A DNA stretch of 64,000 bases from Minisyncoccota bacterium (GTDB lineage: Bacteria > Patescibacteriota > Minisyncoccia > Phycocordibacterales > UBA6065): positions 188,265 through 252,264 of the forward strand of contig DASZXC010000008.1 of NCBI GenBank assembly GCA_035546035.1, given 5' to 3'. Below, piece by piece: positions 1 through 21,572 of this stretch; within the stretch, counting starts at the first letter, position 1, and each line of letters begins with the position of its first letter. Made by a program: the position numbers and the translations under genes. Under the pieces are notes generated by a model, which worked only from the letters and a program-made list of their open reading frames with translations, was not told where the DNA came from and ran no database searches.

Positions 1-1091
1 GAAACGCCTGCGTGCTCGAAATATTCTATGAATGATTCGAAATGCTGGGTCGCGAGTATCTCCGTCGGGGCCATGTATGCGACCTGGAGGGCGCCGTAGT
101 CTTTGCCGTTAGGCCTGGTCATGATCGCGGCATACGCTGTCGTAGCAGCGACAGCCGTCTTGCCCGAGCCCACGTCGCCTTCAAGGAGGCGCGACATGGC
201 ATGCCCCTTTTTAAAATCGTTCATGATGTCCGCGACCGACCGCGACTGAGCATCGGTGAACGGAAAAGGGAATCGAGACACGAATTTCTGCATCAGCTCC
301 TGCTTCGGCTCGATGACGAATGCGAGATTCTTCTGCCACGCCTTTCGTTCGCGCTGGCGCTCGAGCTGGATAAAGAATACCTCTTCGAATGCGAAGCGCT
401 TTCGTGCCGCGGCCGCGTCATCGGCATTTTGCGGAGCATGGATCCATACGAGGGCGGTCGTCAGAGAGGGGAGATTGTATTTTTTGAGGATGTCTTCGGG
501 CAAAGGATCGGCGAGCGTATCGAGGATGCCGCTTTTAAAGACAGCCTGGATCTTATGATATATCCAGTCAGACGAAACGCCGCGCGATTCGGGGTATACG
601 GGGTATAACGTGCGCGCGCCGCCGTCTTTTCCAAAAAGAGAATCACCGACAGCCGTCGGAAGCTCGGACACCTGCTCTATCTTCGGATTCGAGAGATATA
701 AGTCGCCGTCTGTCGCGCCTGACCGCGCGCGTCTTTGAGAGACCTTTCCTTCGATGCGGACCATCGCTCCGTCAGGGATCATTTTGGCAAGGTACGGCTG
801 ATTGAACCAGACGGCTTTGATCGAGCCCGAACCGTCGTCTATGATGCCGTCAGCCATGGCGATCTTGGTACGGAAGCCTTTCGATGTCTTCAGTTTCGAT
901 ATCGTGCCGAAGATGACGGCCGCATCGCCTTTGCGGAGGCTCTCGATATTGCGCGATTCAGCCGTATCGCCATATCTGACGGGGAAGTGGCAGAGGAGAT
1001 CTTCAATGGTCTTTATTCCAAGACGCTTGAGGGCCGCTTTGACGGGACCCTGCAATCGGAACTGCTCTTCCAGGATATGGCTCAAATTCAC
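1..1091 (-). CDS. recG: ATP-dependent DNA helicase RecG (5' part; gene continues past window start)
   Basis: Minus-strand translation gives ...LGIKTIEDLLCHFPVRYGD (RecG wedge-domain N-terminus) and later the Walker A motif GDVGSGKT. One frame stays open from about 1091 to position 1. The plus-strand ORFs in the track look spurious (R-rich). Start at GTG 1089-1091 is approximate. Confidence 0.7.
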   Translation of the reverse strand, partial: MNLSHILEEQFRLQGPVKAALKRLGIKTIEDLLCHFPVRYGDTAESRNIESLRKGDAAVIFGTISKLKTSKGFRTKIAMADGIIDDGSGSIKAVWFNQPYLAKMIPDGAMVRIEGKVSQRRARSGATDGDLYLSNPKIEQVSELPTAVGDSLFGKDGGARTLYPVYPESRGVSSDWIYHKIQAVFKSGILDTLADPLPEDILKKYNLPSLTTALVWIHAPQNADDAAAARKRFAFEEVFFIQLERQRERKAWQKNLAFVIEPKQELMQKFVSRFPFPFTDAQSRSVADIMNDFKKGHAMSRLLEGDVGSGKTAVAATTAYAAIMTRPNGKDYGALQVAYMAPTEILATQHFESFIEYFEHAGV

Positions 1092-1116
1092 GGGGTAATT
1101 GTATATGCGCGGAGCA

Positions 1117-1150
1117 TTAAACAAAAGAGCCGCTGTGCGGCTCTTTTGCC
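1117..1150. terminator. bidirectional hairpin terminator (AAGAGCCGC-tgt-GCGGCTCTT with flanking A/T runs)
   Basis: Perfect 9-bp stem followed by TTTTG on the plus strand and TTTGTTT on the minus strand. It lies downstream of the 1166..1408(-) small protein and upstream of the recG start. Confidence 0.5.
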
Positions 1151-1165
1151 CTGTCCGGAATCAAT

Positions 1166-1408
1166 CTAGTAGACGTTCACCGATCCGTTGGCGCTCGTTC
1201 CTGAAGCAGCTCCCGGACACTGCGCAAACTCGCAGTTGGGACCGGTTCGACCGACAGAGCTGCCGTCGGGGCAGAGCTTGGCGTCCATGGTGCAGAAGAC
1301 CTGTTCCTGCGTATTACTGGGACGCGTGGTCGCATAATAGGCCCAGATCCCTCCGCCTATGATGAGCGCCGCCACTATCGTTATTATCGCTGTTTTCATA
1401 TCGTTCAT
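1166..1408 (-). CDS. small Cys-rich membrane-anchored/secreted protein (hypothetical)
   Basis: 80-aa ORF with an N-terminal hydrophobic helix (AIITIVAALIIGGGIWAYY) followed by 4 Cys (CTMDAKLCPDG...CEFAQCPG). Confidence 0.45.
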   Translation of the reverse strand: MNDMKTAIITIVAALIIGGGIWAYYATTRPSNTQEQVFCTMDAKLCPDGSSVGRTGPNCEFAQCPGAASGTSANGSVNVY

Positions 1409-1409
1409 A

Positions 1410-2243
1410 TTACGCTTCGTATCCGCTTTTTGTTTTCTTCATGAAGCCTTCGCGGACGAGGGCGGCGATATTTTTCTCTATGTCATGAGGCGTGTCACCG
1501 ATTTTTGTCGCGATATATTTTTTTATATCGACCTTGGTCCGGGCTCCGCCGAGTACGAATCGCACGATAGCGGCGCGGATTTCGCGGTTGGAGCCTTTGA
1601 ACGCAGACTGCTTGACGTGATGCTTGCTCCGGCGAGAAGGGTTTGGAAGCGTCTGTTTGAGGTGCGCGCCATAATCCATGAGGGCATAATACCAAGAGCG
1701 AGGATCTTTTCGGTCCAGGGTTTCTTCTATGAGAGGCAATATCTTTGCGTCAGGCACCTTCTTTTTATCTTTAAAAAAGCAATGAAGAAAGACGGCGCGG
1801 ATGTTTGTCTCTATGAATACGCTCGGAATGCCATACGCGAATGCGAGGATAGCACCGCGGGTAGACTGGCCTATGCCGGGGAGTGATTCCAATTCGTCTG
1901 CACCGCGCGGAAATGCGCCGTTATGGTCGCGGACGACGGATTCGGCCGCGCGCTTCAGGAGAAGCGCGCGGCGATTGTATCCTAGGCCTTGCCATGCACG
2001 CAGGACCTGCGCCGCCGTCGCTCCGGCGAGCGCTTCCGCATCGGGAAACTCCTTCAGGAACTCGTCGTATCTCTTCAGGACCCGCGATACCTGGGTCTGC
2101 TGGAGCATCATTTCGGAGACGAATATCCGATACGGGTCGCGGAAGCCGTTCGAATCGGCAGGCAGGTCTCTCCACGGCAGATCGTGCCTGCCGCTCTTCC
2201 TGAAATAATCCATAACTAGCGATTTAAACCTTTGCCTATCCAT
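1410..2243 (-). CDS. HhH-GPD superfamily DNA glycosylase (endonuclease III / MutY-like)
   Basis: LPWR motif near the N-terminus and HhH-GPD motifs (LESLPGIGQSTRGAILAFAYG). No C-terminal Cys cluster is visible. Confidence 0.8.
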   Translation of the reverse strand: MDRQRFKSLVMDYFRKSGRHDLPWRDLPADSNGFRDPYRIFVSEMMLQQTQVSRVLKRYDEFLKEFPDAEALAGATAAQVLRAWQGLGYNRRALLLKRAAESVVRDHNGAFPRGADELESLPGIGQSTRGAILAFAYGIPSVFIETNIRAVFLHCFFKDKKKVPDAKILPLIEETLDRKDPRSWYYALMDYGAHLKQTLPNPSRRSKHHVKQSAFKGSNREIRAAIVRFVLGGARTKVDIKKYIATKIGDTPHDIEKNIAALVREGFMKKTKSGYEA

Positions 2244-2281
2244 GTTCGTACTATATCATTAGAGGGTTTCTTCAAAACGAT

Positions 2282-3067
2282 ATGATCAAAGTAAACAACC
2301 TTATAAAGAAATTCGGGGACTTCACCGCCGTGGACGGCATATCATTCGATGTGGCTGCGGGGGAGATCTTCGCGTTTCTCGGCCCGAACGGCGCAGGCAA
2401 GTCCACGACCATTAAGATACTGACGACGCTCCTTCATCCGACGTCCGGCGATGTCGCTATAAACGGCCATGACCCGGTCCATCATCCGGATTCCGCCCGC
2501 CGATCCTTCGGCATCGTGTTCCAGGACCCGTCTACCGATGACGATCTCACCGCATGGGAGAACATGGATCTCCATGGCGTCCTCTATGACGTTCCCGACG
2601 ATATCCGCCGCAAGCGCATCGAAGAGCTCCTCAAGCTTGTCGACCTCTATGACCGCAAGGACAGCCCGGTAAAGGAGTTCTCCGGCGGCATGAAGCGCAG
2701 GCTCGAGATCGCCCGCGGCTTCCTCCATCATCCGAAGATCATATTCCTCGACGAGCCGACGCTCGGTCTCGATCCCCAGACGCGCAACCATATGTGGGAA
2801 TACCTGCGCCAGCTCAACAAGAACGAGGGCACCACGATCTTCTTCACCACCCATTATATGGAAGAAGCCGACCGCGCGGCCCAGAGGATCGCGGTTATAG
2901 ACCACGGCAAGATTATCGCCACAGGCACATCCGATGACCTCAAGAGCCAGACCAACTCAAAATCGCTCGAAGACGCGTTCCTCGCCCTCACCGGAAAGAC
3001 CATCCGCGAGCAGGGCGCCGACAATATGGCGTATGCGGCGATGCGAAGCATGAGAAGAGGACGCTAA
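2282..3067 (+). CDS. ABC transporter ATP-binding protein
   Basis: Walker A GPNGAGKST, ABC signature LSGGMKRRLEIA, Walker B IIFLDEPT. Confidence 0.85.
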   Translation: MIKVNNLIKKFGDFTAVDGISFDVAAGEIFAFLGPNGAGKSTTIKILTTLLHPTSGDVAINGHDPVHHPDSARRSFGIVFQDPSTDDDLTAWENMDLHGVLYDVPDDIRRKRIEELLKLVDLYDRKDSPVKEFSGGMKRRLEIARGFLHHPKIIFLDEPTLGLDPQTRNHMWEYLRQLNKNEGTTIFFTTHYMEEADRAAQRIAVIDHGKIIATGTSDDLKSQTNSKSLEDAFLALTGKTIREQGADNMAYAAMRSMRRGR

Positions 3068-3078
3068 ACGGAAATACA

Positions 3079-3825
3079 ATGAAAAAGATATACATACTTT
3101 GGCTCCGACAGGTTAAAAAATATTTCCGCTCGAAATCGCGCATCGCCGGGTCGCTTTTCCAGCCGATCCTCTACATGCTCGCGATGGGATACGGCCTCGG
3201 CTCGGTGTTCCAGCAGGCAGGACAGGGCAATTACATCGAATTCCTCGTTCCCGGCATCGTGGGCATGAATATCATATTCACGAGCATGTTCTCCGGCATG
3301 GAAGTGATCTGGGACCGTCAGTTCGGCTTCCTGAAAGAGACGCTCGTCGCGCCGATGTCGCGATTCAATATCATGCTCGGCAGGACGCTCGGCTCCGCGA
3401 CCATCGCGGCGGGGCAGGGGCTCGTCGTGCTCCTTTTGGCGACGCTTCTCGGCTTCCGCCTCGAAAATTGGCTCATGATCGTCCCGGCATTCCTCATCAT
3501 GTTCGTCATATCCCTTCTCTTCACGTCGCTCTCGACCATGATCGGTTCGGTACTGAAAGATATGCAGGGATTCCAAGCCGTCATGAACTTCCTCATCATG
3601 CCGCTATTCCTTCTGTCGGGCGCGATGTTCCCGCTGACCAATCTGCCGAAGCTGCTCCAGTTCGCTACCAATATCGACCCGCTCTCGTACGGCATCGACG
3701 CTATGCGCGCCGTGCTTATCGATCAAGGGCATTTCAGTCTGACCCTCTCCGCTTCAGTCCTCTCTGTGCTCGCTGTCGCATTCTTGTTCCTGGGCGCTCA
3801 TTATTTCAAGAAGATAGAGATATAG
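3079..3825 (+). CDS. ABC-2 family transporter permease
   Basis: Multi-TM protein immediately downstream of the ATPase, with an ABC-2-type hydrophobic profile. Confidence 0.75.
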   Translation: MKKIYILWLRQVKKYFRSKSRIAGSLFQPILYMLAMGYGLGSVFQQAGQGNYIEFLVPGIVGMNIIFTSMFSGMEVIWDRQFGFLKETLVAPMSRFNIMLGRTLGSATIAAGQGLVVLLLATLLGFRLENWLMIVPAFLIMFVISLLFTSLSTMIGSVLKDMQGFQAVMNFLIMPLFLLSGAMFPLTNLPKLLQFATNIDPLSYGIDAMRAVLIDQGHFSLTLSASVLSVLAVAFLFLGAHYFKKIEI

Positions 3826-3860
3826 GAAAGAGAGCGCCGGTATGGTATCGTCTCTTTTAC

Positions 3861-3949
3861 GGAGACGTGGCTGAGTGGTCGAAAGCGGCACCGTGCTAAG
3901 GTGTTAACCGGGTAAAACTGGTTCCAGGGTTCGAATCCCTGCGTCTCCG
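3861..3949 (+). tRNA. tRNA-Ser (anticodon GCT)
   Basis: Acceptor stem GGAGACG/CGTCTCC, anticodon stem GCACC/GGTGT with loop GTGCTAA (anticodon GCT), long variable arm, T-arm CCAGGGTTCGAATCCCTG. Confidence 0.8.
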
Positions 3950-4068
3950 CATTGACAACTTAGTATCGGCATGACCTAATATCTTTTGATAGAAGGGCGA
4001 CCCGAGTGCTCGGTTGGAAGACAAAAAGAGCGGATCAGTCCGCTCTTTTTGTTTGCTATACTTTTCAC

Positions 4069-5091
4069 ATGATTACCATCTCTCGCCCAACACCAGAAGA
4101 CGCAGAAGGCATGAATGAGGTCATCAAGCTCTCGTGGTATGCGACCTACGTCACTCCCGAGATAGGTGTCACAAAAGAAGATATCGACCTCATGTATGCG
4201 AAAAGCGAGAAGGGTCAGATGGAAGCGTTCCGCCGCCGAGCCGGACTCTCGAAGAATGACGACATCACGCTCGTCGCAAAGGGCGGCGAGAAGGTTATTG
4301 GCATCATCCGTCTCGTTGATTTTCCCGATCACATTCGGGTAAGAACACTCTATGTGCATCCTCTGCATGTAGGAAAAGGAATCGGGACAAAATTATGGAA
4401 TGAGGCCATCAGACTGATGCCTTCCTACAAGCCCGTGATCACGTATCCTGCCGAGCACACCAAATCAGTCGATTGGTACAAGAAGATGGGTTTTGTCGAG
4501 ACGGGCGAAAAGCTTGTGGGCCAAGAATCAATGGAGAAAAGCGCCGCGAGACTGGTCGGGATAAAAATGATATTTAAGCGGACAATAGAAAGGATCCTGG
4601 TCATGGGAAGGTCGGGATCAGGAAAGTCGATATTGGCTGGAAGGCTCGGAGAGAAATTCGGCCTGCCCGTCTTTCATATGGATAGACTGTTCTGGCTCCC
4701 TGGCTGGGTCGAGCGTCCGAAGACAGAGATGGCTATCGATGTCGAGAAGATATTGGTAGATAACAAAGGCTGGGTCATCGATGGCAATTACAGGCGCGTC
4801 GCTCTGGAGTCCCGCATTCGCGCCGCTGACCTCATCATCATTCTCGACTTCGGTTTCCTCGTATCGATCTGGAGAGTGCTGAAAAGGAACATCATCCATT
4901 GGAACAAGACGAGGCCAGACATGCAGGACGACTGCGTCGAGAGGTTCAACTTCGAGTTCGTGAAATACATCTGGACGTACCCGGAGAGGACGCTTCGGCC
5001 TATTGAGAATGATCTGTCACGCTTCCCGGAGAAGACCGTGTTGAGGTTCAATAGCCAGCGTGCGCTCGATAGGTGGATGAAGAGTTTATAG
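4069..5091 (+). CDS. GNAT acetyltransferase fused to a P-loop NTPase/kinase domain (adenylate-kinase/FlaR-like)
   Basis: N-terminal GNAT motifs (VIGIIRLV...HVGKGIGTKLWNEA) and a C-terminal Walker A VMGRSGSGKSILAGRL. The track ORF starts at 4006; the ATG at 4069 (MITISRP) is more plausible. Confidence 0.55.
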   Translation: MITISRPTPEDAEGMNEVIKLSWYATYVTPEIGVTKEDIDLMYAKSEKGQMEAFRRRAGLSKNDDITLVAKGGEKVIGIIRLVDFPDHIRVRTLYVHPLHVGKGIGTKLWNEAIRLMPSYKPVITYPAEHTKSVDWYKKMGFVETGEKLVGQESMEKSAARLVGIKMIFKRTIERILVMGRSGSGKSILAGRLGEKFGLPVFHMDRLFWLPGWVERPKTEMAIDVEKILVDNKGWVIDGNYRRVALESRIRAADLIIILDFGFLVSIWRVLKRNIIHWNKTRPDMQDDCVERFNFEFVKYIWTYPERTLRPIENDLSRFPEKTVLRFNSQRALDRWMKSL

Positions 5092-5097
5092 CACCCA

Positions 5098-6294
5098 TTG
5101 GGCTATAATGGCCCCATGATCAAAGTCGGTCAAAAAGACAGCCTCCTTATTCTGACCTATTCCCCGAGGGCACCTTGGGTTTTGAGTGGGTTTGAGAGAG
5201 CTGATGAAGTCTCCATAAAAAATGGGATTTTCACATTCTTTAAAAGTGACTTGTATTCGCCTGATCGCATAGATGAGGACGAAAGCGAGGTCGAGTTCGT
5301 CATTGGCCGCACGGAGGGCGACTACTTCAAAATCGAGCCGAGAATCCTGGGTATTAAACAGAGGATCTATATCCATAAAAGTATGGATATAACCGACCGC
5401 TTCTTCGTGGTCGCGAGCGATATTTCCATTTTCAAGAAAATAGCGGAGGTCGTCAGCGAGGACATATACATCGGCGGAGACGCGCCGACCTCGTTACCCG
5501 AGAGCGAGTTCCGAAAGCTCCTCAAAGATTTTCCCAATCCTTATGAGGTCAAGAAATACGTTCATGCCCGCATCGGTTCGGTCCTGAGCAACTATTACGA
5601 CTCCGCCTCGGACGTAGAGGAGAAATACGACCGCTACATGAACAAGCGCAAGAGCGTGAAGAGCGAAGACCTCCTGGAGGAGTTCAAGCAAGACGAGCTC
5701 GTAAAATACCAGACGTTGCTCGATAGGCTTCAAGTGATGCTCGAGCGCGAGACCGCCTATAACGAGAAGCAGTGGCAGAACGAGATCCTCGACATCATCC
5801 TGCTCCTCTATCCGAAATACCTCTTCGCGTTCAAGGAGGCTCCTGTGCGGGACGCTTACAACGAGAAAGACAGGCAGCTCGATTTCCTCCTCGTCGACGC
5901 GAACGGGAGCATTGATATCGTCGAGATAAAGCGGCCGCTCGGCAAGCAGATAATCACCCAGGGCAAGTATCGCGATAACCACATACCCCTTCGTGATCTG
6001 TCGGGCACGGTGATGCAGATCGAGAAGTATATCTTTCACCTTAACAAATCAGGCAAGAAGGGTGAAGAAAAGCTGACCGAGAAATACAAGGATAAGCTTC
6101 CGAAGGATTTCAAGATCAAGATCATAAACCCGTGCGGCATGATCATCATGGGCAGGGACAATGACCTGTCGACGGCCCAGAAGGAGGATCTCGAGGTCGT
6201 GAAGAGGAAATATAAGAGCGTGATCGATATCATCACGTACGACGACCTTTTGAGGCGTCTGAAAGCGATGATCGCCGCCATTAAAAAGCGTTAG
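5098..6294 (+). CDS. Shedu-like DUF4263 nuclease-fold protein (candidate anti-phage defence protein)
   Basis: C-terminal region carries a PD-(D/E)xK-like core DFLLVDANGSIDIVEIKRP ... QIEKY and a C-terminal IIMGRD...ITYDDLL pattern typical of DUF4263/SduA. It lies right after the tRNA integration hotspot. Confidence 0.5.
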   Translation: MGYNGPMIKVGQKDSLLILTYSPRAPWVLSGFERADEVSIKNGIFTFFKSDLYSPDRIDEDESEVEFVIGRTEGDYFKIEPRILGIKQRIYIHKSMDITDRFFVVASDISIFKKIAEVVSEDIYIGGDAPTSLPESEFRKLLKDFPNPYEVKKYVHARIGSVLSNYYDSASDVEEKYDRYMNKRKSVKSEDLLEEFKQDELVKYQTLLDRLQVMLERETAYNEKQWQNEILDIILLLYPKYLFAFKEAPVRDAYNEKDRQLDFLLVDANGSIDIVEIKRPLGKQIITQGKYRDNHIPLRDLSGTVMQIEKYIFHLNKSGKKGEEKLTEKYKDKLPKDFKIKIINPCGMIIMGRDNDLSTAQKEDLEVVKRKYKSVIDIITYDDLLRRLKAMIAAIKKR

Positions 6295-6326
6295 CAATTA
6301 CGTTTCGGTCAAGTTATAGTTATTCC

Positions 6327-6938
6327 ATGATCTGGATCGTAATCGCCGCCGCCGTCGTCTGGTGGATATATAAGCAGCGCAACACGCCTAAACAAGCGCA
6401 GGTGGTAGAGGACGTTCCCTTGTTAAAAGATGAAGGGATAAGCGAAGAAGCCGTACTTCAGGCGCAGACGAGCTTTGAGAAGAATCTCGAAGACACTTTT
6501 CTGCCCGATGCCATCACACGAAGGGATCTGTATATCTATCGCAAGCTCATGCGGGTCTGGTTCGCGAAGCTCGCAGGAGAGAACCGATTCGACGAGACGA
6601 TGACGCAAAAACTGAGGAGAGACTGGCTCGATTACATGTACGCGTTGCGAGACGCCAAGACGTCACACTACCTCTCGATGGAGACGTACGGCGAAGACAA
6701 GGAGAGGTCGGATTCGTACGACCAGGAAAGCACGATCGCTCACAGAAAAGCGTTCGCTATCGAGGACGGCTTTGCTTTTGCCGTAGGAAAAGAGGCGGTC
6801 GCTGAACTTGCCCGTATACGCGCCCTCGAATTTAGCGAGATAAGCAGAGACGGGGAACTCGCCCCGGATGGCATGGAGTTCGATTTCGAAGACAAGCCCC
6901 GCCGTAAGAAGAAAGCGAAGCCGTCTAAGATGGTCTAG
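6327..6938 (+). CDS. hypothetical membrane-anchored protein
   Basis: 203-aa ORF with an N-terminal TM helix (IWIVIAAAVVWWIY), an acidic soluble domain and a basic C-terminal tail. Confidence 0.4.
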   Translation: MIWIVIAAAVVWWIYKQRNTPKQAQVVEDVPLLKDEGISEEAVLQAQTSFEKNLEDTFLPDAITRRDLYIYRKLMRVWFAKLAGENRFDETMTQKLRRDWLDYMYALRDAKTSHYLSMETYGEDKERSDSYDQESTIAHRKAFAIEDGFAFAVGKEAVAELARIRALEFSEISRDGELAPDGMEFDFEDKPRRKKKAKPSKMV

Positions 6939-6941
6939 CTC

Positions 6942-7409
6942 CTATTGCCTGATAAATTCGGTTAGGAGCACAACATATTTTTCCTGAAGTTCTTTCGATA
7001 CCAGATCCTCTGATAATTTTGTTGGCACCGCTTCTGTTTTTATGAGATCCGTGCACTTGTCAAAATAGAACCCCGCAGGCGTCGCTATAAATATCCACGC
7101 GAGCTTCCACCTGTCACAGATAGCCTGAGCGTTCTTTTGGATGTCGTCCATATCGACCCTTGATCGATACTTCACTTCGACGAGTGATACCTCTTTCGGC
7201 TCGTGCGACACGAGGGCGAAGTCGGGAGCATTCCGTATATTATCGAGGATGCTCCTGTCGAGGCCTTTGGTGTATTGCATGAGCTCTGGCACGACGGACT
7301 CATAGCCGAAAGGGATGACCGTATACTCTCCGGCTTCGCGGAACATCTGGTCGAACACGAGCTCGGCGATCTTGCCCTTGATGAGCTGCTTTGAGAAGTC
7401 TTTTTGCAT
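6942..7409 (-). CDS. hypothetical protein with a PD-(D/E)xK-like motif (restriction-endonuclease-like fold?)
   Basis: Motif PDFALVSHEPKEVSLVEVKYRS (D...E-x-K). The track ORF extends to 7481, but that stretch overlaps the IS256 left inverted repeat. Start taken at the internal ATG (MQKDFSK); the IS may have truncated the true N-terminus. Confidence 0.4.
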   Translation of the reverse strand: MQKDFSKQLIKGKIAELVFDQMFREAGEYTVIPFGYESVVPELMQYTKGLDRSILDNIRNAPDFALVSHEPKEVSLVEVKYRSRVDMDDIQKNAQAICDRWKLAWIFIATPAGFYFDKCTDLIKTEAVPTKLSEDLVSKELQEKYVVLLTEFIRQ

Positions 7410-7440
7410 GGAATCATTGTATCGCTTAATGTCGGGATCG

Positions 7441-8647
7441 GATACCGAATCTTTGACGCGGGCATAACCACAAACAACCATGAAAACAATGCTCTCATAC
7501 GCAGAATATCAGCGAAAAATAAGGTCCATCCGCACTCCCGAAGATGCCAAAGCGTTCGCCGAGGAACTCATTGCACCGGCAGAGGCAGTCGAAGAAAAGC
7601 CTCCTGTAGCGGTCGCGATCGAGCCTAAGCGCCCTGAACCGATCCAAGTCGAAGCACCTCGGAGGGAAAAGGATGTCGACGTGGCATCGACTCCCTGGTA
7701 TGACATCGCAGGAAACGACAACGAGGCAATGGTCATTACACTATACGCCAAAGGCCTCACGACCCGCGACATCTCAAGCTACATGAAACTCCATCATGGA
7801 GCGGACATCTCACAGCCAGGAATATCAGCCATAACCGACAAGGTGTTTCCACTGGTCAAAGAGTGGCAATCCCGCCCGCTCTCATCCTGCTATCCCGTCG
7901 TATACATGGACGGGCTCCACTTCAAGGTACGAGAGGCGGGAAAGATATCGTCCAAGGTTGCATACATCGCTCTCGGCATCAACCAGTACGGGTACAGGGA
8001 GATCCTTGGTATATGGATCTCCGAGAGCGAGGGCTCAAAGTTCTGGCTCCACGTCATGAACGACATGAAGAACAGGGGCGTAGAGGATGTCATATTCGCC
8101 TGTATCGACGGCTTAAGGGGCTTTCCGGAGGCCGTGAAGGCAGTATTCCCCGAGACGGACGTACAAGTATGCATTGTCCATCAGATACGCCATACCATCA
8201 TGTTCATTCCTTTCAAAGATCGAGAGGAATTCTGCGCCGATCTCAAAGAGGTGTATACAGCTCCGAGCGAGGAAGCAGGAATGCAGGCACTCAAAGACAT
8301 GATGTCGAGGTGGCCCCGCTATGCCATGTATCTCAAATCTTGGGAGCAGAAGTGGCACGATCTCGCGCCCTTCTTCAGCTTCCCTGAAGCCATCCGCCGC
8401 ATCATATACACTACGAACACGATAGAGAATCTCAATCGGCAGTTTAGGAAGGTGACGAAGACCACGACGGTCTTCCCGCATGACGATGCACTACTCAAGC
8501 TCCTCTGGCTCGCCCAGGCCGACATCACGCAGAACTGGACTTTAGCTACGAGAAACTGGGCCGAAGTGATGGCCCAGCTCTCGATCCTTTATCCCGACCG
8601 CATCCGCATCTAAAGATTAACACATAGCCCGCGGCAAACTCGGTATC
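7441..8647 (+). mobile_element. IS256-family insertion sequence (about 1.2 kb) with imperfect terminal inverted repeats
   Basis: Left end GATACCGAATCTTTGACGCGGGCAT (7441-7465) against the reverse complement of the right end ATAGCCCGCGGCAAACTCGGTATC (8624-8647): GATACCGA..GCGGGC match. Encloses one Mutator/IS256-type transposase. Confidence 0.5.
7480..8613 (+). CDS. IS256-family transposase
   Basis: 377 aa with a conserved IS256/Mutator core: VVYMDGLHFKVRE...YIALGINQYGYREILG...VIFACIDGLRGF...CIVHQIRHT. Confidence 0.85.
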   Translation: MKTMLSYAEYQRKIRSIRTPEDAKAFAEELIAPAEAVEEKPPVAVAIEPKRPEPIQVEAPRREKDVDVASTPWYDIAGNDNEAMVITLYAKGLTTRDISSYMKLHHGADISQPGISAITDKVFPLVKEWQSRPLSSCYPVVYMDGLHFKVREAGKISSKVAYIALGINQYGYREILGIWISESEGSKFWLHVMNDMKNRGVEDVIFACIDGLRGFPEAVKAVFPETDVQVCIVHQIRHTIMFIPFKDREEFCADLKEVYTAPSEEAGMQALKDMMSRWPRYAMYLKSWEQKWHDLAPFFSFPEAIRRIIYTTNTIENLNRQFRKVTKTTTVFPHDDALLKLLWLAQADITQNWTLATRNWAEVMAQLSILYPDRIRI

Positions 8648-8648
8648 T

Positions 8649-8672
8649 GCAAAGGCCGCATGCGGCCTTTGC
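8649..8672. terminator. perfect 12-bp palindromic hairpin GCAAAGGCCGCA/TGCGGCCTTTGC
   Basis: Sits between the converging transposase (ends 8613) and the APH-like gene (ends 8691). No strong U-tract. Confidence 0.4.
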
Positions 8673-8690
8673 TAGTCTGGGTGAGGTCGA

Positions 8691-9662
8691 TTAATTTTCT
8701 AAAACACTCCTTCTGTCCGCAAGGTATTTTTGGATATTGGAAACCATTTCGGTTCTTCCTTTCTTGTGAGAGTACGGGAGCTTCATGGTTGCATTGATCA
8801 AAACTGCAGCCTGAAGCGCTTTCGCGTTATACGGTTCACCTCCAAAATATCCCTCGATCAGTTGCTCTATCTGCGAGGCCGCTTGTCCTGTGGCAAGCAT
8901 GACGATGCTTCGTCCTAAATCTAGGTATCCGTTATTAAAACGTGGATTCGGATCGAACACGGTGATCGGGTCCGTGTCAAAAATGTTCGATGTTCCGAAA
9001 TCGTCGTGGCAAAAACTACTGCGATTTTCCGACTCGACGTGAGCGGTCATTATTTCGTACGCAGTCGACAATGATCCGTGCTCCGTACCGAGCAGCTTGT
9101 GCTCTTTCACGTAATCGACGCGTTTCTTCATGTCTGGCCCGTTGATCCAGTCGCTGAATCGGGAATATTCCGCCTTGCCGTCCACGACGCCGCCAAAGCC
9201 TTCCGCTTTCGGCGCATGCATTGTTCTCAGTGTCTTTCCGAGGTCGACATATATTTTCTTCTTAAGCGACTCTTCCGGGCTGTACCTGCCAGTGATCACT
9301 GGCGCGTCGATGTATTCCATGAGGATGTAGGAGAGCTCGCCAAACGAGCCTTCCTCATATACGCGAGGCACTTTCACCCCTGCGTTCTCCCATGTCTTAA
9401 GGAAGAGGCCTTCGCCCTTTGAGAAAGCCAGGCTTAGAGGCACCTTGAGGATGAGTTTCTCATCGTTCGTTTCGATTTTAGCCACGAGAGAGCCCGCGCC
9501 TTTCTCGATAAAGTAGATACTCACGTCCTTGCCTTTGAAGAGATCGTGCTTCGAGACGTACTCTTCTATCATTGGGACAAGGCCCGTCCGACGGTCGTTG
9601 AACTTTCTGTCCACGTCGTGTAGAGAGAGTTCGGGTTTGTTAAGGAGGGTCACGTTTGGCAT
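8691..9662 (-). CDS. aminoglycoside/choline-kinase-like phosphotransferase (APH family fold)
   Basis: Brenner-type catalytic motif HDDFGTSNIF and a downstream DPNPRF..GYLDLG, as in APH/ChoK-like kinases. Confidence 0.65.
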   Translation of the reverse strand: MPNVTLLNKPELSLHDVDRKFNDRRTGLVPMIEEYVSKHDLFKGKDVSIYFIEKGAGSLVAKIETNDEKLILKVPLSLAFSKGEGLFLKTWENAGVKVPRVYEEGSFGELSYILMEYIDAPVITGRYSPEESLKKKIYVDLGKTLRTMHAPKAEGFGGVVDGKAEYSRFSDWINGPDMKKRVDYVKEHKLLGTEHGSLSTAYEIMTAHVESENRSSFCHDDFGTSNIFDTDPITVFDPNPRFNNGYLDLGRSIVMLATGQAASQIEQLIEGYFGGEPYNAKALQAAVLINATMKLPYSHKKGRTEMVSNIQKYLADRRSVLEN

Positions 9663-9710
9663 TGGTGTAATTATATCAGGATTTCACATCCCGATTCTTA
9701 ATTCACGGTC

Positions 9711-11042
9711 CTATTCCGCGACAAACGATATCTTCTTGTCCTTGTAGCAGAGCCTGCTCCGCAGATTCGCCAAAAGCTCTCGCTTCTCCGATACGCTTCC
9801 TTCACGCAGGAGGTATTTGGCATACTCTCTCGTATTGATCTCGGTCTCGTCGATGGTCTGCTTTTTGACCGATTTGGTCGCAAGTCTCTGGAGGACGTTG
9901 TATCGCTTGATCTCCTCTTCGAGCTTCATCCTCATGCCGAGTTCGTTTAAGCTCACCTTGTCCATGATCTTGAGGAGCTCGTCTATTAGCTCCTCCTCGC
10001 GGATGTACTTGTTCTTGCAATTTCGGTCTCGCGCTCGGGAACATCCGTAGTATATGTATTTTTGGGACGTACCGTTTTTGAGTAGTTTCCACTTCTCTTC
10101 GGCCGATATACCCGACTGACAGTATCCGCAGGTGAAGAGCTTGGTGAAGGCGAACTCCTTGTTCTCTCGCACGATCTTGTCGCGCTTCAGCTGTTCCTGC
10201 GCCTTGTCGAAGAGGTCTTTGGTGATGATGGGCTCGTGCTTGCCCGTGTACCAGTTGCCGCTATTTCGTGGACGCTCGAAGATGCCGTAATAGAAGGGGT
10301 TTTGGATGATGCGGTATACGCCTGAGAGAGTGAGAGGCTTGTTGCCTCGGGTATAGAAGTTAAGCTCGAAGCGGAGCCAGTTATATATCTTCCGTCCGCT
10401 CCATTGCTCGAAGGCAACCTTTTCATACATCTTCTTTATGATCGGCGCACGGACGGGGTCGATAATGACCTGGCACTTCTTGTCCATGAGCTTTTGATTG
10501 AGGTACCCAAGTGGCGCTGTGCCTGCCCATAATCCCATCTCGGCTCGGGTGCGGAGGCCGCGCTTCACGTTGATGCCTCGGTTGTCGTTTTCAAGCTTTG
10601 CCTGCCCGCAGAGGATCATGAGCATGAACTTGTCGTTCGGGCTATTCGAGAACCTCTGACTGAACGTCCTGATATCCTGAAGCAAGCTCGCATCCATGAG
10701 GTCTACGATGCGGCCGAGGTCGCCTGCGTTTCGAGAAATGCGGTCAGGAGCCCATGTCAGTATTCCATTATACTTCCCAAGCTTGAGTTCCTCGATGATC
10801 TCGTTGAATACGGGCCTCTGGCCAGTCTCCTTGGCCGAGTGCGATTCGCGTTTCATCTCGACGATCTCGAGGCCGTCTCGCTCGGCTAATTGGAGCATCT
10901 CCTTGATCTGACTATCAATCGACAGGATCTGACGCTCCTCGGATTCCGTCGACTTCCTGGCATACAGACAATATTTCACTTTCACGGGGACCGCTACTTT
11001 GGCCAGGGTCCCTAATGGCGCTTGGGCTATATTGTTATTCAT
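9711..11042 (-). CDS. large serine recombinase (phage-type integrase)
   Basis: N-terminal resolvase domain YCLYARKSTESEERQILSIDSQ (catalytic Ser), a recombinase domain and a C-terminal zinc ribbon CGYCQSG...YYGCSRARDRNCKN. Paralog of 28598..29923. Confidence 0.85.
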   Translation of the reverse strand: MNNNIAQAPLGTLAKVAVPVKVKYCLYARKSTESEERQILSIDSQIKEMLQLAERDGLEIVEMKRESHSAKETGQRPVFNEIIEELKLGKYNGILTWAPDRISRNAGDLGRIVDLMDASLLQDIRTFSQRFSNSPNDKFMLMILCGQAKLENDNRGINVKRGLRTRAEMGLWAGTAPLGYLNQKLMDKKCQVIIDPVRAPIIKKMYEKVAFEQWSGRKIYNWLRFELNFYTRGNKPLTLSGVYRIIQNPFYYGIFERPRNSGNWYTGKHEPIITKDLFDKAQEQLKRDKIVRENKEFAFTKLFTCGYCQSGISAEEKWKLLKNGTSQKYIYYGCSRARDRNCKNKYIREEELIDELLKIMDKVSLNELGMRMKLEEEIKRYNVLQRLATKSVKKQTIDETEINTREYAKYLLREGSVSEKRELLANLRSRLCYKDKKISFVAE

Positions 11043-11069
11043 ACATCACAAGGAATGACGCAACGCGCC

Positions 11070-11432
11070 CTAGGAGTCCAGAGCATCCCGAGAGCTAGTT
11101 GTTGGTAACTCGAAGAGATTAAAATCCTCGATTTCTTTCCTGTATTCGTCCATATCGCGCACCACTTTCTTGTATATCTCCGAAACCCGCTTCAGCCTCT
11201 CTTCGCTGGAGACCGAGTTGCTATCAAGGAGAAAATCCACAGCATCGTCGTCGACGAACGTGGCAAGAGAGATATAGCATGCGGCGAGAAAGCTCATGCG
11301 CTCCTTGATGCTTCGCTTAAGGTCGCTTTTCGGCTCGGAGAGGAGCGAGAGCTTATTCAATGTCATGCTCCTTGGCGGTTTGCCGTATCGCATATGTTCT
11401 GTGGCCTTTATAACTGCTTCGATGTCGTCCAC
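11070..11432 (-). CDS. hypothetical protein upstream of the serine recombinase (possible accessory/directionality factor)
   Basis: 120-aa ORF with no recognisable motif. The assignment rests on position only. Confidence 0.3.
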   Translation of the reverse strand: MDDIEAVIKATEHMRYGKPPRSMTLNKLSLLSEPKSDLKRSIKERMSFLAACYISLATFVDDDAVDFLLDSNSVSSEERLKRVSEIYKKVVRDMDEYRKEIEDFNLFELPTTSSRDALDS

Positions 11433-11452
11433 GCATCAAGGAATGACGCCGA

Positions 11453-12139
11453 TTGGGGCGGAAGTCCAGACCTGATTCCGTGTGCTACACTTTTAATGTA
11501 AAGGCAATTGCAGCCAACAAGTCTATGGAATCCTTCTCAAAAGTCATCAACGGAATGCTGGCGATATCTATCGTTCCGTTCATCATGCTCAATGTCTTGG
11601 GAAGCATAGTAAGTACCATTTGGCTTTTGTTTCTCGGCGAATGGCGGCTTGTCGTGATGGGTGTGATCTTCATATTGATCTCGTCGTTTGTCATTTCGAT
11701 ACTCCTCCTTCCAACCATGGGCTTCATGTACCTCATCCTAAAATCGCTTGAGAAAAACAGGAGGGTCTTGGTCGCCATTGTAGGTTGGCTGAATCTCACA
11801 TACACGCATGTGATTGGCCTGGTGTGGACGATAGGAATTTTCATACTGATGTTCAACATCGCTGGAGACGGGAATGTCTTTCCGTATCTGCTCTTCGGAT
11901 ACGGATTAGCGACGGGCCCATACGCGTACATGGCTTCGAAAGAGGATCGAGAAGCGACTGGCTCGCACATGACTGTTTGGCTCTTACAATTTGCATATGC
12001 GCTCCTTTTCCTTTTCTACTACGTCAGCTCGACGCTCATAGCCCTCCCGATCATCCTTATCGTCACTCTCTTGGTCGAGATATGGCTTCTGAAGATTGGT
12101 ATGATCTATCACAAATTGGATACTCAACATGCGCAATAA
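11453..12139 (+). CDS. hypothetical polytopic membrane protein
   Basis: Six or more hydrophobic helices. The true start may be the ATG at about 11525 (MESFSK). Confidence 0.4.
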   Translation: MGRKSRPDSVCYTFNVKAIAANKSMESFSKVINGMLAISIVPFIMLNVLGSIVSTIWLLFLGEWRLVVMGVIFILISSFVISILLLPTMGFMYLILKSLEKNRRVLVAIVGWLNLTYTHVIGLVWTIGIFILMFNIAGDGNVFPYLLFGYGLATGPYAYMASKEDREATGSHMTVWLLQFAYALLFLFYYVSSTLIALPIILIVTLLVEIWLLKIGMIYHKLDTQHAQ

Positions 12140-12428
12140 AGGCTATTCAGGAACGCTCTCGACCGTTTCCGGCATAATGCTCCTGGCTGCTATTCCGTTC
12201 GGCTGGCCGTATTTCTATTTCCAGTTACTCAGATGGGTAGTGTGCACAACTGCGATAGTGAACGCGTACGAGGCGAATAAGAAGCAGAGGAGGAGATGGG
12301 TCTTCATCATGGCGGGAATCGCCGTGCTCTTCAATCCGATCGCGCCGATATTCCTGAGCCGGGGCGTCTGGGCAATTATCGACCTGGCCGCCGCTGTCTG
12401 CATGTTCGTGATCCTCGATAACGAATAG
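12129..12428 (+). CDS. hypothetical small membrane protein
   Basis: 99 aa with 3 predicted TM helices. Overlaps the previous gene by 11 nt. Confidence 0.35.
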   Translation: MRNKGYSGTLSTVSGIMLLAAIPFGWPYFYFQLLRWVVCTTAIVNAYEANKKQRRRWVFIMAGIAVLFNPIAPIFLSRGVWAIIDLAAAVCMFVILDNE

Positions 12429-12433
12429 ATCGA

Positions 12434-13529
<1,096 letters not shown>

Positions 13530-13880
13530 ATGAACGACCTAGACATTCCCATATTCAAGAAATCCTATAATCTCTACAAAGATTTCTATGCTCTCCGCCT
13601 ATCGGTGCCGAAGCAAGATCGCTATACTCTCTGGCAGAAATGCGAGAGTCTACTCGTTGAAGTGCTCGAAGGCATCCTTTTCGCGAGCCAACAGTCGAAA
13701 TTGGAGAAATTACCGACTTTGGAGAAGACGAGTGTCAAACTGAACTTTCTCCGCGTCTGTATCCGTCTCATGAAGGACATCAAGGCAATCGATTCCAAGA
13801 AGTACATCGTGATCGAGGCGAATCTCGATGAGATCGGAAGAATGCTCGGAGGCTGGATAAAATCCACGAAGGGACTCTAA
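13530..13880 (+). CDS. avd: DGR accessory variability determinant (Avd; four-helix-bundle / 23S-IVS protein family)
   Basis: 116 aa with a C-terminus ANLDEIGRMLGGWIKS that closely resembles the Avd/IVS-protein signature. It is transcribed divergently, back-to-back with the RT (CATATG shared by both start codons). Confidence 0.65.
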   Translation: MNDLDIPIFKKSYNLYKDFYALRLSVPKQDRYTLWQKCESLLVEVLEGILFASQQSKLEKLPTLEKTSVKLNFLRVCIRLMKDIKAIDSKKYIVIEANLDEIGRMLGGWIKSTKGL

Positions 13881-13883
13881 CAG

Positions 13884-13905
13884 AAAACCCACATATGTGG
13901 GTTTT
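13884..13905 (+). terminator. hairpin AAAACCCACATATGTGGGTTTT downstream of avd
   Basis: Perfect palindrome, T-rich on both sides. Confidence 0.5.
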
Positions 13906-13926
13906 CTCGGGATAGAGCTATGACTG

Positions 13927-14042
13927 CCGGGCAGCCGACACGCCGATGTTGCCATTGTGGTTGTCGTCGTTCCAGTTGTTGACGTTGAGACCCTTGGAAT
14001 CGAAGTTGCCGACGTTGACACGATTGCCGTCCGAGTCGAGAT
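13927..14042 (-). repeat. DGR template repeat (TR)
   Basis: 116 bp matching the VR at 14402..14517. Its coding-sense strand is adenine/AAC-rich (encodes ...NVGNFDSKGLNVNNWNDDNHNGNIGVSAAR). It is not part of any intact ORF. Confidence 0.8.
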
Positions 14043-14322
14043 ATTGCCCGTTTCCGTCCATGACACCGAGATTTGAGGTTTACTACCTTTGCAGGTCTAT
14101 ATCCTCTCATCTCTGAATTTTATTCGAGAGTAGCTTTCGTCTGAAAGCACCTCCTCTAGAAACGGGCAAGAAGTTCTCTCTATCCTCAAATCGCGCTCTG
14201 CCGTAATCCATAGACTACTAGCACTCTGGCGACACCAAAAAGGTGAGATATCTCGCGAACTTGAACCGTGATCCAAGCTACATGAGCAAGATGCGGATAT
14301 GATACCAAATTTTTATAAAAAA

Positions 14323-14354
14323 GAGGCTTCGCAAAAAAATTTTCGCGAAGCCTC
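14323..14354 (-). terminator. rho-independent terminator of the DGR target gene (10-bp stem GAGGCTTCGC/GCGAAGCCTC plus U-tract)
   Basis: Perfect stem followed by a T-run on the minus strand, downstream of the stop at 14393. Confidence 0.55.
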
Positions 14355-14392
14355 AAGGATTCAAGAGGGACAAGCCCTCAAGGGATCAAGAA

Positions 14393-18488: not shown

Positions 18489-19012
18489 AGCTCCGAAACA
18501 CCTGCATTAGGAGGCTCGGAGCTATGGCAAACGTGGGGCTTATCAAGGTTCTATTCTCATGCAATTATACACCATAATATGGCTCTCTGTCAAGCTCAAT
18601 CGTGCAGGCACCTTTCGACTCTCCAAGAACTAGCCCTCAACCAAGCCACCCCATAGAAATACCCTTAAAAGCCCTAGTTTAAGCCCTTTTTGGGCCATCA
18701 AAATGGCTCTGTTGAGCTGTTGGCAACGGGGCTTCGCAAAGCCCTCCTTTCGAGCTAAGGTACATGACTGATATTCGCTTTCGGGGTATCATGGTCAATG
18801 ACAATTTAATAGGAAAGCCTAACCTCTAGGAAAATCACGTTTTTCTAGAGCATGGTCAAAAAATCTCCCGCTAGAGATCAAAGGACTCCCAGTCAGAGTC
18901 GCTCTAGCGGGTCGTGTCTGGAAACGGATACGGGCGGGCCGAAAGGTTCGCCGCGATGGCTGGGAGCCCTTTGTTATTCGGTCTCTCAGTCACATTAAAA
19001 ACCCGCTAGAAA

Positions 19013-21205: not shown

Positions 21206-21572
21206 CCGAAGCCAAGCGTAGAGCCTCTCGGACGAGGGCTTCTTGTTCGGGAGTGAGCTCTTCCTGGCGAGTAACGGCGGTTACTTCGAGCTTGTTTTTG
21301 TATTCAGGATGGTGGTGACGGAGCCACTGCATGATGGCCGTCATGTTCTTGTCCTTGATGGCCGATATGAGCTGGCTTTCGGCCAGGTCGTTCACCATGA
21401 GCTTGCCTTCGGCGAGGGCTTCAAGAGCGAGCTTCTCGAATTCCTTGTCCTCTTTGAGCCAGCGGTAGTAGGTCATGCGGGAAACGCCCGTCTTTTCGCA
21501 GGCGATTTGGATCACGGGCGTTTTTCTGAATTGCTCAAGCAATATCTCTTTGTTTTTGTCGGTCTTGTTCAT
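21066..21572 (-). CDS. terminase small subunit-like HTH DNA-binding protein
   Basis: HTH PVIQIACEKTGVSRMTYYRWLKEDKEF. It sits directly upstream of the large terminase. There is a paralog at 31884..32603. Confidence 0.5.
   Translation of the reverse strand: MNKTDKNKEILLEQFRKTPVIQIACEKTGVSRMTYYRWLKEDKEFEKLALEALAEGKLMVNDLAESQLISAIKDKNMTAIMQWLRHHHPEYKNKLEVTAVTRQEELTPEQEALVREALRLASGEVETETAVAVDINDNGKPNDTTEKSDAAPIGGGDAQGQKSEDGNH

Follow-up and report, generated by a model that had tools for sequence, protein, structure and literature searches.

A mosaic of Shedu, other defence genes and serine-recombinase elements beside tRNA-Ser in a Minisyncoccota genome

Introduction

Shedu is a single-gene defence system that is commonly found in transposable elements and prophages (Gu et al., doi 10.1101/2023.08.10.552793). 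For EcSduA, six active-site residues have been named, and the protein forms a tetramer whose N-terminal clamp binds free double-stranded DNA (dsDNA) ends (Loeff et al., doi 10.1101/2023.08.10.552762). A two-component form, KELShedu, also exists (PMC12577705), and phage satellites that combine a large serine recombinase (LSR) with packaging hijack have been described (Vibrio PLE and PICI-type; PMC9638900, PMC10085698). Here we describe a Shedu gene, sduA, and the DNA that surrounds it in a stretch of 64,000 nucleotides (the window) from a Minisyncoccota bacterium of the Patescibacteria (assembly GCA_035546035.1, contig DASZXC010000008.1), where a variable region begins at the 3' end of tRNA-Ser(GCT).

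A preliminary description of the window had flagged positions 4006-9662 as a defence-island-like accessory segment inserted at this tRNA and had listed six genes in it: a GNAT-kinase fusion, a Shedu-like DUF4263 protein, a basic-tailed protein (here called C), a small PD-(D/E)xK-motif protein (here called D), an IS256 copy and an aminoglycoside phosphotransferase (APH)-like kinase. All six genes and tRNA-Ser(GCT) are present, with strong profile matches and conserved homologues well beyond chance; in NCBI the proteins have accessions from HVU06616.1 (GNAT) to HVU06622.1 (recombinase) and locus tags of the form VHE10_024xx. We analysed the window with Pfam, PADLOC, NCBIfam, phrog and Rfam, ARAGORN, PDB sequence matching, AlphaFold2 (AF2), Foldseek and BFVD.

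Results

Extent and composition of the variable region

To the left of tRNA-Ser(GCT) (3861-3950, + strand; ARAGORN, and Rfam RF00005 at 55 bits) the window has ordinary content, with genes for a MutY-like glycosylase, an ABC ATPase and an ABC-2 permease, and to the right of about 38.3 kb it encodes a small membrane protein, an M10-type peptidase and type IV pilus genes. Relatives were sought by a permease scan with one genome per species, which found L002 (Paceibacterota SMAG_U6182; permease 85% identical). L002 is colinear with the window over 128-3958 and 38313-46756 and has zero matches between these blocks (tblastx and blastn); homology stops 8 nt past the tRNA 3' end, at position 3958, and in L002 only 221 nt separate tRNA-Ser from the small membrane-protein gene. 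In L062 the permease, tRNA-Ser and peptidase all lie within 4 kb, and the flagged genes are absent. The GC content is 55-56% in both flanks versus 50% across 3951-35430 and 46% within E2, an element of this stretch described below.

Because colinearity with L002 breaks at 3958 and resumes at 38313, the accessory DNA measures about 34 kb rather than 5.7 kb. On this comparison the variable region, from 3951 to about 38297, is accessory DNA of some 31-34 kb between tRNA-Ser(GCT), its left anchor, and the small membrane-protein gene. The proposal of an accessory segment at tRNA-Ser was therefore sound as to kind and left edge, since the flagged genes are missing from L002 and L062, differ from the core in GC (about 51% versus 55-56%) and start at the tRNA 3' end. 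Its boundaries were not: the region missing in L002 is 3959-38312, and the segment as first drawn stopped 49 nt short of a recombinase gene, LSR1. Nor is the region one inserted unit. The account that we hold with good confidence as a whole is that it is a mosaic of gene-sized cassettes and two tandem recombinase/terminase elements, E1 and E2.

The region clusters several defence systems (Shedu, a type II cyclic-oligonucleotide-based antiphage signalling system (CBASS), an Avs2 C-terminal-like open reading frame (ORF) and three DNA methyltransferases (MTases)) with mobile-element genes (two recombinases, a transposase, TerL and TerS). No Phage_integrase (tyrosine integrase) domain was found in any ORF scanned across 3951-38600, where two large serine recombinases are found instead. 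The preliminary description had proposed a search for a direct repeat of the tRNA-Ser 3' end farther right; the 64 kb contain no second copy of that end or of the spacer that follows it (up to 3 mismatches; blastn-short), and a 23-nt fragment turned up in a relative, L068, only.

A type I Shedu

The sduA gene (5116-6294, + strand) starts at ATG 5116, not at 5098 as first given, and encodes 392 aa, compared with a type I mean of 386. The protein matches PADLOC PDLC00388 (E=3.8e-151, model positions 1-398 of 402) and Pfam SduA_C PF14082 (E=2.4e-35, 122 bits against a cut-off of 27). It aligns with EcSduA over essentially its full length (PDB 8PS4, E=2.1e-81), its residues 19-178 match the EcSduA N-terminal domain (8PS6, E=1.2e-24), and the active site is conserved at all six positions (E217, Q221, D256, E270, K272 and Q301, equivalent to E226, Q230, D269, E283, K285 and Q314 of EcSduA). 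By these alignments SduA is a canonical type I, EcSduA-like Shedu. The DUF4263/Shedu assignment made earlier for 5098-6294 is borne out by the PDLC00388, PF14082 and 8PS4 matches, and the motifs quoted for it are present; DUF4263 similarity is thus clear, and the flagged genes are not in conserved synteny beside tRNA-Ser in all relatives.

By inference from EcSduA, the window SduA would act as a tetramer with its N-terminal clamp on free dsDNA ends, and its PD-(D/E)xK domain would nick close to the 5' end and so block phages whose replication passes through linear intermediates. We consider an EcSduA-like mechanism of this sort the most likely one. Among 80 related SduA loci (SduA identity 38-66%), none has GNAT-kinase, C or D nearby, and as judged from these loci SduA is a single-gene system without an obligatory partner. 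The window context agrees with the picture of Shedu in mobile elements drawn by Gu et al.

A spacer-SduA-C cassette next to tRNA-Ser

The tRNA is followed by a 118-nt spacer (3951-4068, + strand) that contains a terminator hairpin of 16 pairs (4019-4054). It is about 90% conserved in L004, likewise after tRNA-Ser and before another GNAT gene (33% identical), beyond which that contig ends; an exact 25-mer of the spacer was found in L004, L068 and L165 only, the last being an independent Logan contig that matches window positions 3894-12864 and supports contiguity there. Because the 118-nt stretch and the position of a GNAT gene are common to L004, the tRNA-proximal part is older and partly conserved in the clade.

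L068, which holds the closest homologues of SduA (82%) and C (82%), has no tRNA gene. Its order is unrelated genes, a 23-nt copy of the tRNA-Ser 3' end (GTTCGAATCCCTCCGTCTCCGCA; T-loop to discriminator) and the same 118-nt spacer (L068 2588-2740 for this stretch), and then SduA and C. The fragment bears the mark of a tRNA 3' end that has been displaced, or of an att core, and shows that elements of this clade integrate at tRNA-Ser(GCT). The window and L068 are homologous from the spacer onwards but for the GNAT-kinase gene, which is left out exactly; the match picks up again about 22 nt ahead of the SduA start codon and stops where the C reading frame stops. By these exact borders, spacer-SduA-C is a conserved cassette, GNAT-kinase is a gene-sized indel, and D lies outside the cassette.

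The tRNA-Ser gene itself looks mosaic: it is identical to L004 and L062 in the 5' half, to L002 in the variable and T arms, and to L004 in the discriminator and the spacer downstream. The Logan contigs from the source sample break in the tRNA (3894-3923), at the first position that differs from the L002-type tRNA.

Tandem elements E1 and E2

LSR1 (9711-11042, - strand; Resolvase, Recombinase and Zn_ribbon_recom domains) is the terminal gene of E1. Its 3' end faces the tRNA-Ser 3' end from 5.76 kb away, a distance that corresponds to the flagged segment. E1 also encodes TerL (19679-21205, - strand; phrog_38, E=7.5e-79), TerS (21066-21572, - strand; TerS phrogs) and two N6/N4 DNA MTases (21569-22342 and 22302-23576, - strand; PF01555). 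A LexA/S24-like repressor gene (24546-25193, + strand; Pfam) lies directly upstream of a complete type II (E2-only) CBASS operon (25212-27950), which encodes an HNH-SAVED effector (25212-26339, + strand; PADLOC PDLC00746, 5e-130), a cyclase (CD-NTase; 26341-27234, + strand; PDLC00803, 1e-67) and the CBASS E2 protein (27222-27950, + strand; PDLC00871, 7e-33).

The second element, E2, has at its left end LSR2 (28598-29923, - strand), a large serine recombinase paralogous to LSR1, just as LSR1 stands at the left end of E1. It has no TerL; the TerL position is occupied by a 366-aa ORF (30157-31257, + strand) that starts about 230 nt from the LSR2 5' end and matches only the Avs2 C-terminal domain, some 365 positions (PDLC02164 positions 1133-1497 of 1504, 2.3e-97). 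No N-terminal Avs2 part was found anywhere in the window, and the ORF is either a truncated Avs2 or a free-standing sensor-like domain. E2 further encodes a Zn-ribbon protein (31389-31946, + strand), a TerS-like protein (31884-32603, - strand) and a ParB-MTase (32561-33895, - strand). We take E1 (about 9.7-28.4 kb) and E2 (about 28.4-35.4 kb) to be two tandem members of one element family, these limits being approximate.

A TerL scan of IMG/VR recovered eight loci (L169-L176), all of which share one gene order along a single strand: MTase, TerS, TerL, a variable bay and a recombinase. Their recombinases are 46-67% identical to LSR1/LSR2, and a LexA-like gene lies divergently upstream where the sequence reaches that far. 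The bay holds a diversity-generating retroelement (DGR) in L169 and L170, an OB-fold gene in L173 and a type III restriction-modification (R-M) system in L169; no virion structural genes were detected in E1 or L169. Metagenome loci of this element family also carry defence cargo, and two of the 80 related SduA loci ride on it: in L143 SduA follows TerL (ParB-MTase, TerS, TerL, SduA), and L081 has both CBASS and SduA (MTase, LexA, CBASS, SduA). The L081 arrangement of LexA, CBASS (SMODS + Cap15) and then SduA is analogous to that of the window.

E1 contains a DGR cassette (12434-15199, - strand), which has a reverse transcriptase (RT; 12434-13529, with RVT_1 on both halves, ORFs 12873-13529 and 12434-12871), bAvd (13530-13880, + strand; E=2.7e-17), a template repeat (TR; 13927-14041) and a variable repeat (VR; 14402-14516) at the 3' end of the target gene (14393-15199). 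All mismatches in the TR/VR core (17 of 17) fall at TR adenines. The RT reading frame is not intact: it is shifted at a 38-nt (GA)19 tract (12940-12977), where one more GA unit restores the frame, and the homologous RT in L170 is uninterrupted at this position. The Logan contig ends at 12864, 76 nt from the tract. The frameshift could reflect phase variation, decay or an assembly error.

Each element has one LOOT RNA motif (Rfam RF03000; 18816-18952 and 31362-31484, at 71 and 81 bits against a gathering score of 46), the first just upstream of a small OB-fold membrane-protein gene (19013) and the second overlapping the start of the Zn-ribbon gene (31389). A 35-nt inverted repeat (80% complementary; 18681-18715 and 28304-28338) brackets 9.6 kb that hold TerL, TerS, the MTases, LexA and CBASS; it could be the sign of a segment that inverts or transposes, or simply be due to chance.

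To the right of E2 lies a remnant with core-like GC (35431-38297; 55%), which encodes an acyltransferase-3 (36135-37349, - strand) and an OmdA/YdeI-like protein (37605-37853, + strand). It closes with a NADAR ORF (37857-38297) that continues in frame, with no stop, into the core membrane-protein gene, whose ancestral ATG at 38298 aligns with the L002 gene start. The L002 membrane protein has a long C-terminal extension instead.

Recombinase targeting and the junction with the flagged segment

Related recombinases lie beside tRNA genes in other loci. In L169 (17466-18931) and L172 (5866-7381) the 3' ends of the recombinase gene and of a tRNA gene point at each other across 120-150 nt, and in L069 (1573-3074) the tRNA overlaps the end of the recombinase ORF; the tRNAs are Glu, Asp and Glu, respectively. 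This suggests that serine recombinases in Patescibacteria may target tRNA-adjacent sites, and tRNA-Ser and LSR1 of the window are convergent like the pairs in L169 and L172. No tRNA repeats were found in L169, L172 or L069, and the window spacer has no similarity to the tRNA-recombinase intergenic regions of these three loci.

Several sequences were considered as att sites. AGTTACCAAC occurs 50-80 nt before the ATG upstream of recombinases (window 11043-11480; L072 250-530) and is only marginally above chance in shuffles. CTGGACT.CC...GCGTCAT(T/C)C also stands upstream of recombinases, and again before a small gene (11070-11432) as if the leader had been duplicated; in a fixed-spacing search CTGGACT.CC...GCGTCAT gave no match at either recombinase. 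Both were rejected on these results as att sites of LSR1, LSR2 and the L072 recombinase. E2 is bracketed by a 56-nt direct repeat (28427-28482 and 35368-35423; 71% identity, extendable to about 100 nt), and the 12-mer ACCCACGTACCT occurs three times, only at the copies of this repeat and at 28545-28556, where 0.14 occurrences are expected by chance. The repeat and the 12-mer are candidate element ends or regulatory sites, unlike usual serine-recombinase att sites; they have no counterpart at LSR1 or other loci and were likewise set aside as att.

The flagged segment might belong to E1. It would then be the recombinase-side cargo bay of a single element that reaches from the tRNA-Ser 3' end (3951) to about 28.4 kb and whose terminal sequence is the spacer. 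The convergence of tRNA-Ser and LSR1, which recalls L169, L172 and L069, fits such an element, as do the GC of the segment (50.9%, equal to the 50.2% of E1), the four cargo genes downstream of the recombinase in L174, the recurrence of Shedu and CBASS as cargo of the family, and the APH gene, which starts 48 nt after the LSR1 stop codon on the same strand. However, the tRNA in L169 and L172 is just 120-150 nt from the recombinase and the intergenic DNA there is unlike the window spacer, L004 shares the spacer but has another first gene, and no att sites were found. In addition, spacer-SduA-C behind a displaced tRNA fragment in L068 is most simply a native tRNA flank that predates another insertion. 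We regard the single element as a real possibility that falls short of even. That 3951-9700 is instead an older islet beside which E1 landed is, in our judgement, close to an even call.

Cargo genes of the flagged segment

The first gene (4069-5091, + strand) encodes a 340-aa fusion of a GNAT acetyltransferase with an adenylate-kinase/FlaR-like P-loop kinase. It starts at ATG 4069 (the DNA from 4006, the start first proposed, to 4068 holds the terminator hairpin), and the 340-aa form is also used by an independent Logan gene call and by NCBI. The GNAT half matches PF00583 (E=6.4e-12); its homologues, at 56-70% identity, are GNATs that occur singly or in fusions with methyltransferase or NUDIX domains. 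Homologues of the kinase half, at 38-49% identity, are stand-alone kinases of about 190 aa. For the FlaR profile suggested earlier, this half gives an AAA/adenylate-kinase-like match to NF005994, 'DNA topology modulation' (E=5.3e-47), but at 160 bits against an equivalog cut-off of 215, which makes this half a related P-loop kinase and not an equivalog member. The motifs GKGIG at 102 and GRSGSGKS at 180 are present, and the CoA and nucleotide motifs look intact. A word-indexed search of 5.8 billion proteins returned no full-length homologue, and PADLOC gave no match. The protein is probably a bifunctional small-molecule-modifying cargo enzyme; a defence role is unsupported.

The IS256-family transposase (DDE, Mutator-type; 7480-8613, + strand) matches NF033543 (E=1.4e-98, 330 bits against a cut-off of 150) and PF00872 (E=6e-85). 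The earlier description as an IS256 copy stands for the gene but not for the element, since nothing convincing as terminal inverted repeats or a target duplication was found around it: the best candidate inverted repeat, at 7452/8638, is 12 nt long and has 1 mismatch, and the flanking 8-mers are not identical. A perfect 12+12 palindrome (8649-8672), likely a bidirectional terminator, separates it from the convergent gene for an APH-fold (aminoglycoside/choline-kinase-like) phosphotransferase (8691-9662, - strand; PF01636, E=1.3e-10). NCBI names this protein 'aminoglycoside phosphotransferase family protein'; it has no PDB sequence match and is most likely another small-molecule-modifying cargo enzyme. 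The earlier picture of an anti-phage island is upheld by a bona fide Shedu, but SduA is the only one of the six genes in 4006-9662 that matches any defence model.

D (6942-7409, - strand; 155 aa) is a stand-alone PD-(D/E)xK protein with an Hjc-like fold that belongs to a large Patescibacteria family of more than 669 homologues. E16, D63, E78 and K80 are invariant, the PDFA...LVEVK motif is invariant across 62 homologues, and identity is 50-77% among the 120 best matches listed. The AF2 model has a pLDDT of 87, and Foldseek gives as best hits archaeal Hjc (2eo0/2wcw, E~1e-4) and also the influenza PA-N endonuclease; because the best fold matches are Hjc and PA-N, we place D in the PD-(D/E)xK fold class only.

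The size and strong conservation of the family, its invariant catalytic residues and the archaeal Hjc resolvases as best fold matches are also what one would expect if D were a housekeeping Holliday-junction or structure-specific resolvase at island-prone loci, neither mobile cargo nor defence. D and C are both absent from IMG/VR viral contigs, which for D points the same way, and two loci (L160, L161) partly keep synteny (TspO, MazG-like, SLFN-type helicase, D). The window copy, however, lies inside DNA missing from the closest relative, and TM-scores to Hjc are low (0.3-0.5). The neighbours of D differ in all seven contexts and are mostly defence or mobile genes: in the six contexts outside the window, where no neighbour is related to the window's save one recombinase, they include that 70%-identical recombinase with Dcm (L072), Schlafen-like ATPases, AAA_13 ATPases, type I R-M and PrimPol. 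A housekeeping role is on balance unlikely, and D is more probably a nuclease specific for structures or ends, a stand-alone protein of a kind usual in the variable regions of Patescibacteria.

C (6327-6938, + strand; 203 aa) is an orphan with one N-terminal transmembrane helix, a helical domain and a basic C-terminal tail; positive charges after the transmembrane helix place the remainder in the cytoplasm by the positive-inside rule. It has no Pfam, PADLOC or NCBIfam match and no fold match in PDB or BFVD. The family counts 8 close homologues and 212 representative clusters, mostly stand-alone proteins of about 200 aa. C is probably a membrane-tethered, cytoplasmic helical domain with a DNA-binding tail. 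Its contexts are variable and rich in defence and mobile genes (a recombinase in L069; HEPN_AbiU2 and an AriA/PtuA-like ATPase in L070). C and D occur together in the window only. A functional C-D pair was ruled out on that ground, and the convergent pair pointed out earlier at 6327-7409 is a coincidence of adjacency.

We also considered a multi-gene Shedu variant, in which GNAT-kinase, SduA and C (perhaps D) would form one operon-encoded system with C as a membrane-anchored DNA-binding partner, like two-component Shedu. The first three genes share a strand and are spaced by 24 and 32 nt, the SduA-C pair is kept in L068 at 82% identity with sharp module borders, the tail of one C-family member is replaced by a terminal FtsK-gamma DNA-binding domain, and KELShedu is a precedent. 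C directly follows SduA only in the window and L068. L069 has a 350-aa protein with a weak match to the SduA core (PDLC00394, E=2.6e-4) and, two genes downstream of that protein, a C homologue; the match keeps a role for C as an SduA partner barely alive. Beyond this match, the upstream neighbours of C in L069 and L166 have no BLASTP similarity to SduA. On the other side, the 80 SduA relatives lack C, D and GNAT-kinase nearby, GNAT-kinase is absent from L068, D does not follow C there, and the C homologues of L070 and L166 have no detectable DUF4263 neighbour. None of the six D contexts has a C homologue or an SduA_C/DUF4263 gene (by Pfam, and for three by blastx against the window proteins). 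EcSduA, a close structural homologue, works alone, and the KELShedu partner lies upstream, with no similarity to it found here. Such a variant is quite improbable, and the 80 SduA loci together with the exact L068 module borders led us to reject GNAT-kinase, C and D as Shedu components.

That the flagged segment is core genome in relatives or an assembly chimera joined at a conserved tRNA can hardly be right: the source-sample Logan contigs do break inside the tRNA with an overlap of just 30 nt, and the tRNA-spacer-GNAT arrangement is common to L004, but the flagged genes are absent from L002 and L062, the L004 GNAT is only 33% identical, the GC of the segment departs from that of the core, the NCBI contig extends over 380 kb, and L004, from a different sample and an independent assembly, reproduces the tRNA-spacer junction.

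Discussion

The region would have been assembled by serine-recombinase elements settling beside tRNA genes, together with cassette-level recombination. In its layout, spacer-SduA-C stands right after the tRNA, with GNAT-kinase slotted between the spacer and SduA. Three unrelated cargo genes, for D, the IS256-family transposase and the APH-fold kinase, come next. They are followed by E1 (with the DGR and type II CBASS) and E2 (with the Avs2-C-like ORF) in tandem, on a backbone of a LexA-like gene and MTase-TerS-TerL-cargo-LSR, and a short remnant with core-like GC closes the region.

Several points tell against this account of a mosaic or limit it. Only 3-4 relatives were compared, at 67-85% protein identity, and a deletion there could explain part of the 34-kb difference. 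Every sequence is a metagenome-assembled genome (MAG) or metagenome assembly, and the right junction is supported by one assembly. The part from 35.4 to 38.3 kb, with its core-like GC, may be lineage-specific chromosome. The limits of E1 and E2 (about 9.7, 28.4 and 35.4 kb) were drawn from gene content and GC together with a single weak direct repeat of 56 nt (71%), and no att sites for LSR1 and LSR2 emerged from upstream motifs, repeats or tRNA-flank comparisons. What is proposed for SduA activity, and for what C, D and the two kinases do, rests on homology or fold, and the model of C is weak, 1 of 5 AF2 models exceeding a pLDDT of 60 (best 77).

A broader proposal would join these observations. 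E1, E2 and the eight IMG/VR relatives would form an undescribed family of small Patescibacteria elements with a LexA-like repressor, ParB/MTase-TerS-TerL, a variable bay and an LSR and with no virion genes, which would act as tRNA-adjacent, satellite-like carriers of DGRs and defence systems (Shedu, CBASS, type III R-M). The flagged segment would be the tRNA-side cargo bay in one of them, and C and D new defence or counter-defence cargo. Taken jointly, these claims are tentative and somewhat unlikely all to hold; E1, E2 and their relatives could alternatively be decayed prophage ends. A literature search for Shedu or satellites in the candidate phyla radiation (CPR) found nothing specific.

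Shedu, CBASS, DGRs and tRNA-linked islands are well described, and to that extent the region adds little beyond one more example. It does document a complete EcSduA-type Shedu and a multi-system defence island in Patescibacteria (CPR), a group poorly charted for phage defence and mobile elements, and shows that in this lineage such systems travel on or beside serine-recombinase, terminase-encoding elements. Two conserved orphan families, C and D, are picked out and are cheap to test. For annotation, the island size is corrected six-fold and the missed recombinase LSR1 is added. The modestly novel leads are limited to the orphans C and D and the recombinase/terminase element family.

Compared with EcSduA (8PS4/8PS5), the window SduA has full-length homology, the same active site, a similar length (392 aa versus 411 in the 8PS4 chain) and no conserved partner. 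It differs in coming from a CPR MAG and in being one of three genes clustered on the same strand, of which the other two do not belong to known Shedu. KELShedu (PMC12577705) likewise has a DUF4263 nuclease beside a putative DNA-binding protein, but its KELA is upstream and not membrane-anchored as described, whereas C is downstream and joins SduA only in the closest relative, L068, being absent from 80 other SduA loci.

D shares fold class, similar size and an E...D...ExK signature with Hjc resolvases (2EO0, 2WCW) and YraN-like small PD-(D/E)xK proteins. It differs from Hjc in its low identity (16-20%) and TM-score, in having no Pfam match, in an extra C-terminal helix and in its variable defence and mobile-element contexts. 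The bifunctional AAC(6')-Ie/APH(2'')-Ia resistance enzyme combines a GNAT and a kinase in one polypeptide. The window fusion resembles it in the concept of a GNAT-kinase on mobile DNA, but its kinase is P-loop adenylate-kinase/FlaR-like and not of the APH fold, and the two have no sequence relationship.

E1, E2 and their IMG/VR relatives are like the phage satellites with LSR and packaging hijack (Vibrio PLE, PICI-type; PMC9638900, PMC10085698) in being small (7-19 kb) and integrative, with no recognisable virion genes, and in encoding a repressor-like protein, TerS (usually TerL), a recombinase and defence cargo. The set and order of ParB/MTase, TerS, TerL, DGR and LSR matched no described satellite family. 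The region as a whole differs from tRNA-associated genomic or defence islands in being composite and in having large serine recombinases, with no tyrosine integrase and no tRNA-derived repeat. Like them it starts at a tRNA 3' end, is absent from relatives, is lower in GC and clusters Shedu, CBASS, an Avs2 fragment and MTases, and L068 keeps a displaced tRNA 3' fragment. What bounds the region is serine-recombinase elements and not a repeat of the tRNA. It is a genuine, ordinary mosaic defence and mobile-element island of a known kind, in a little-studied lineage.

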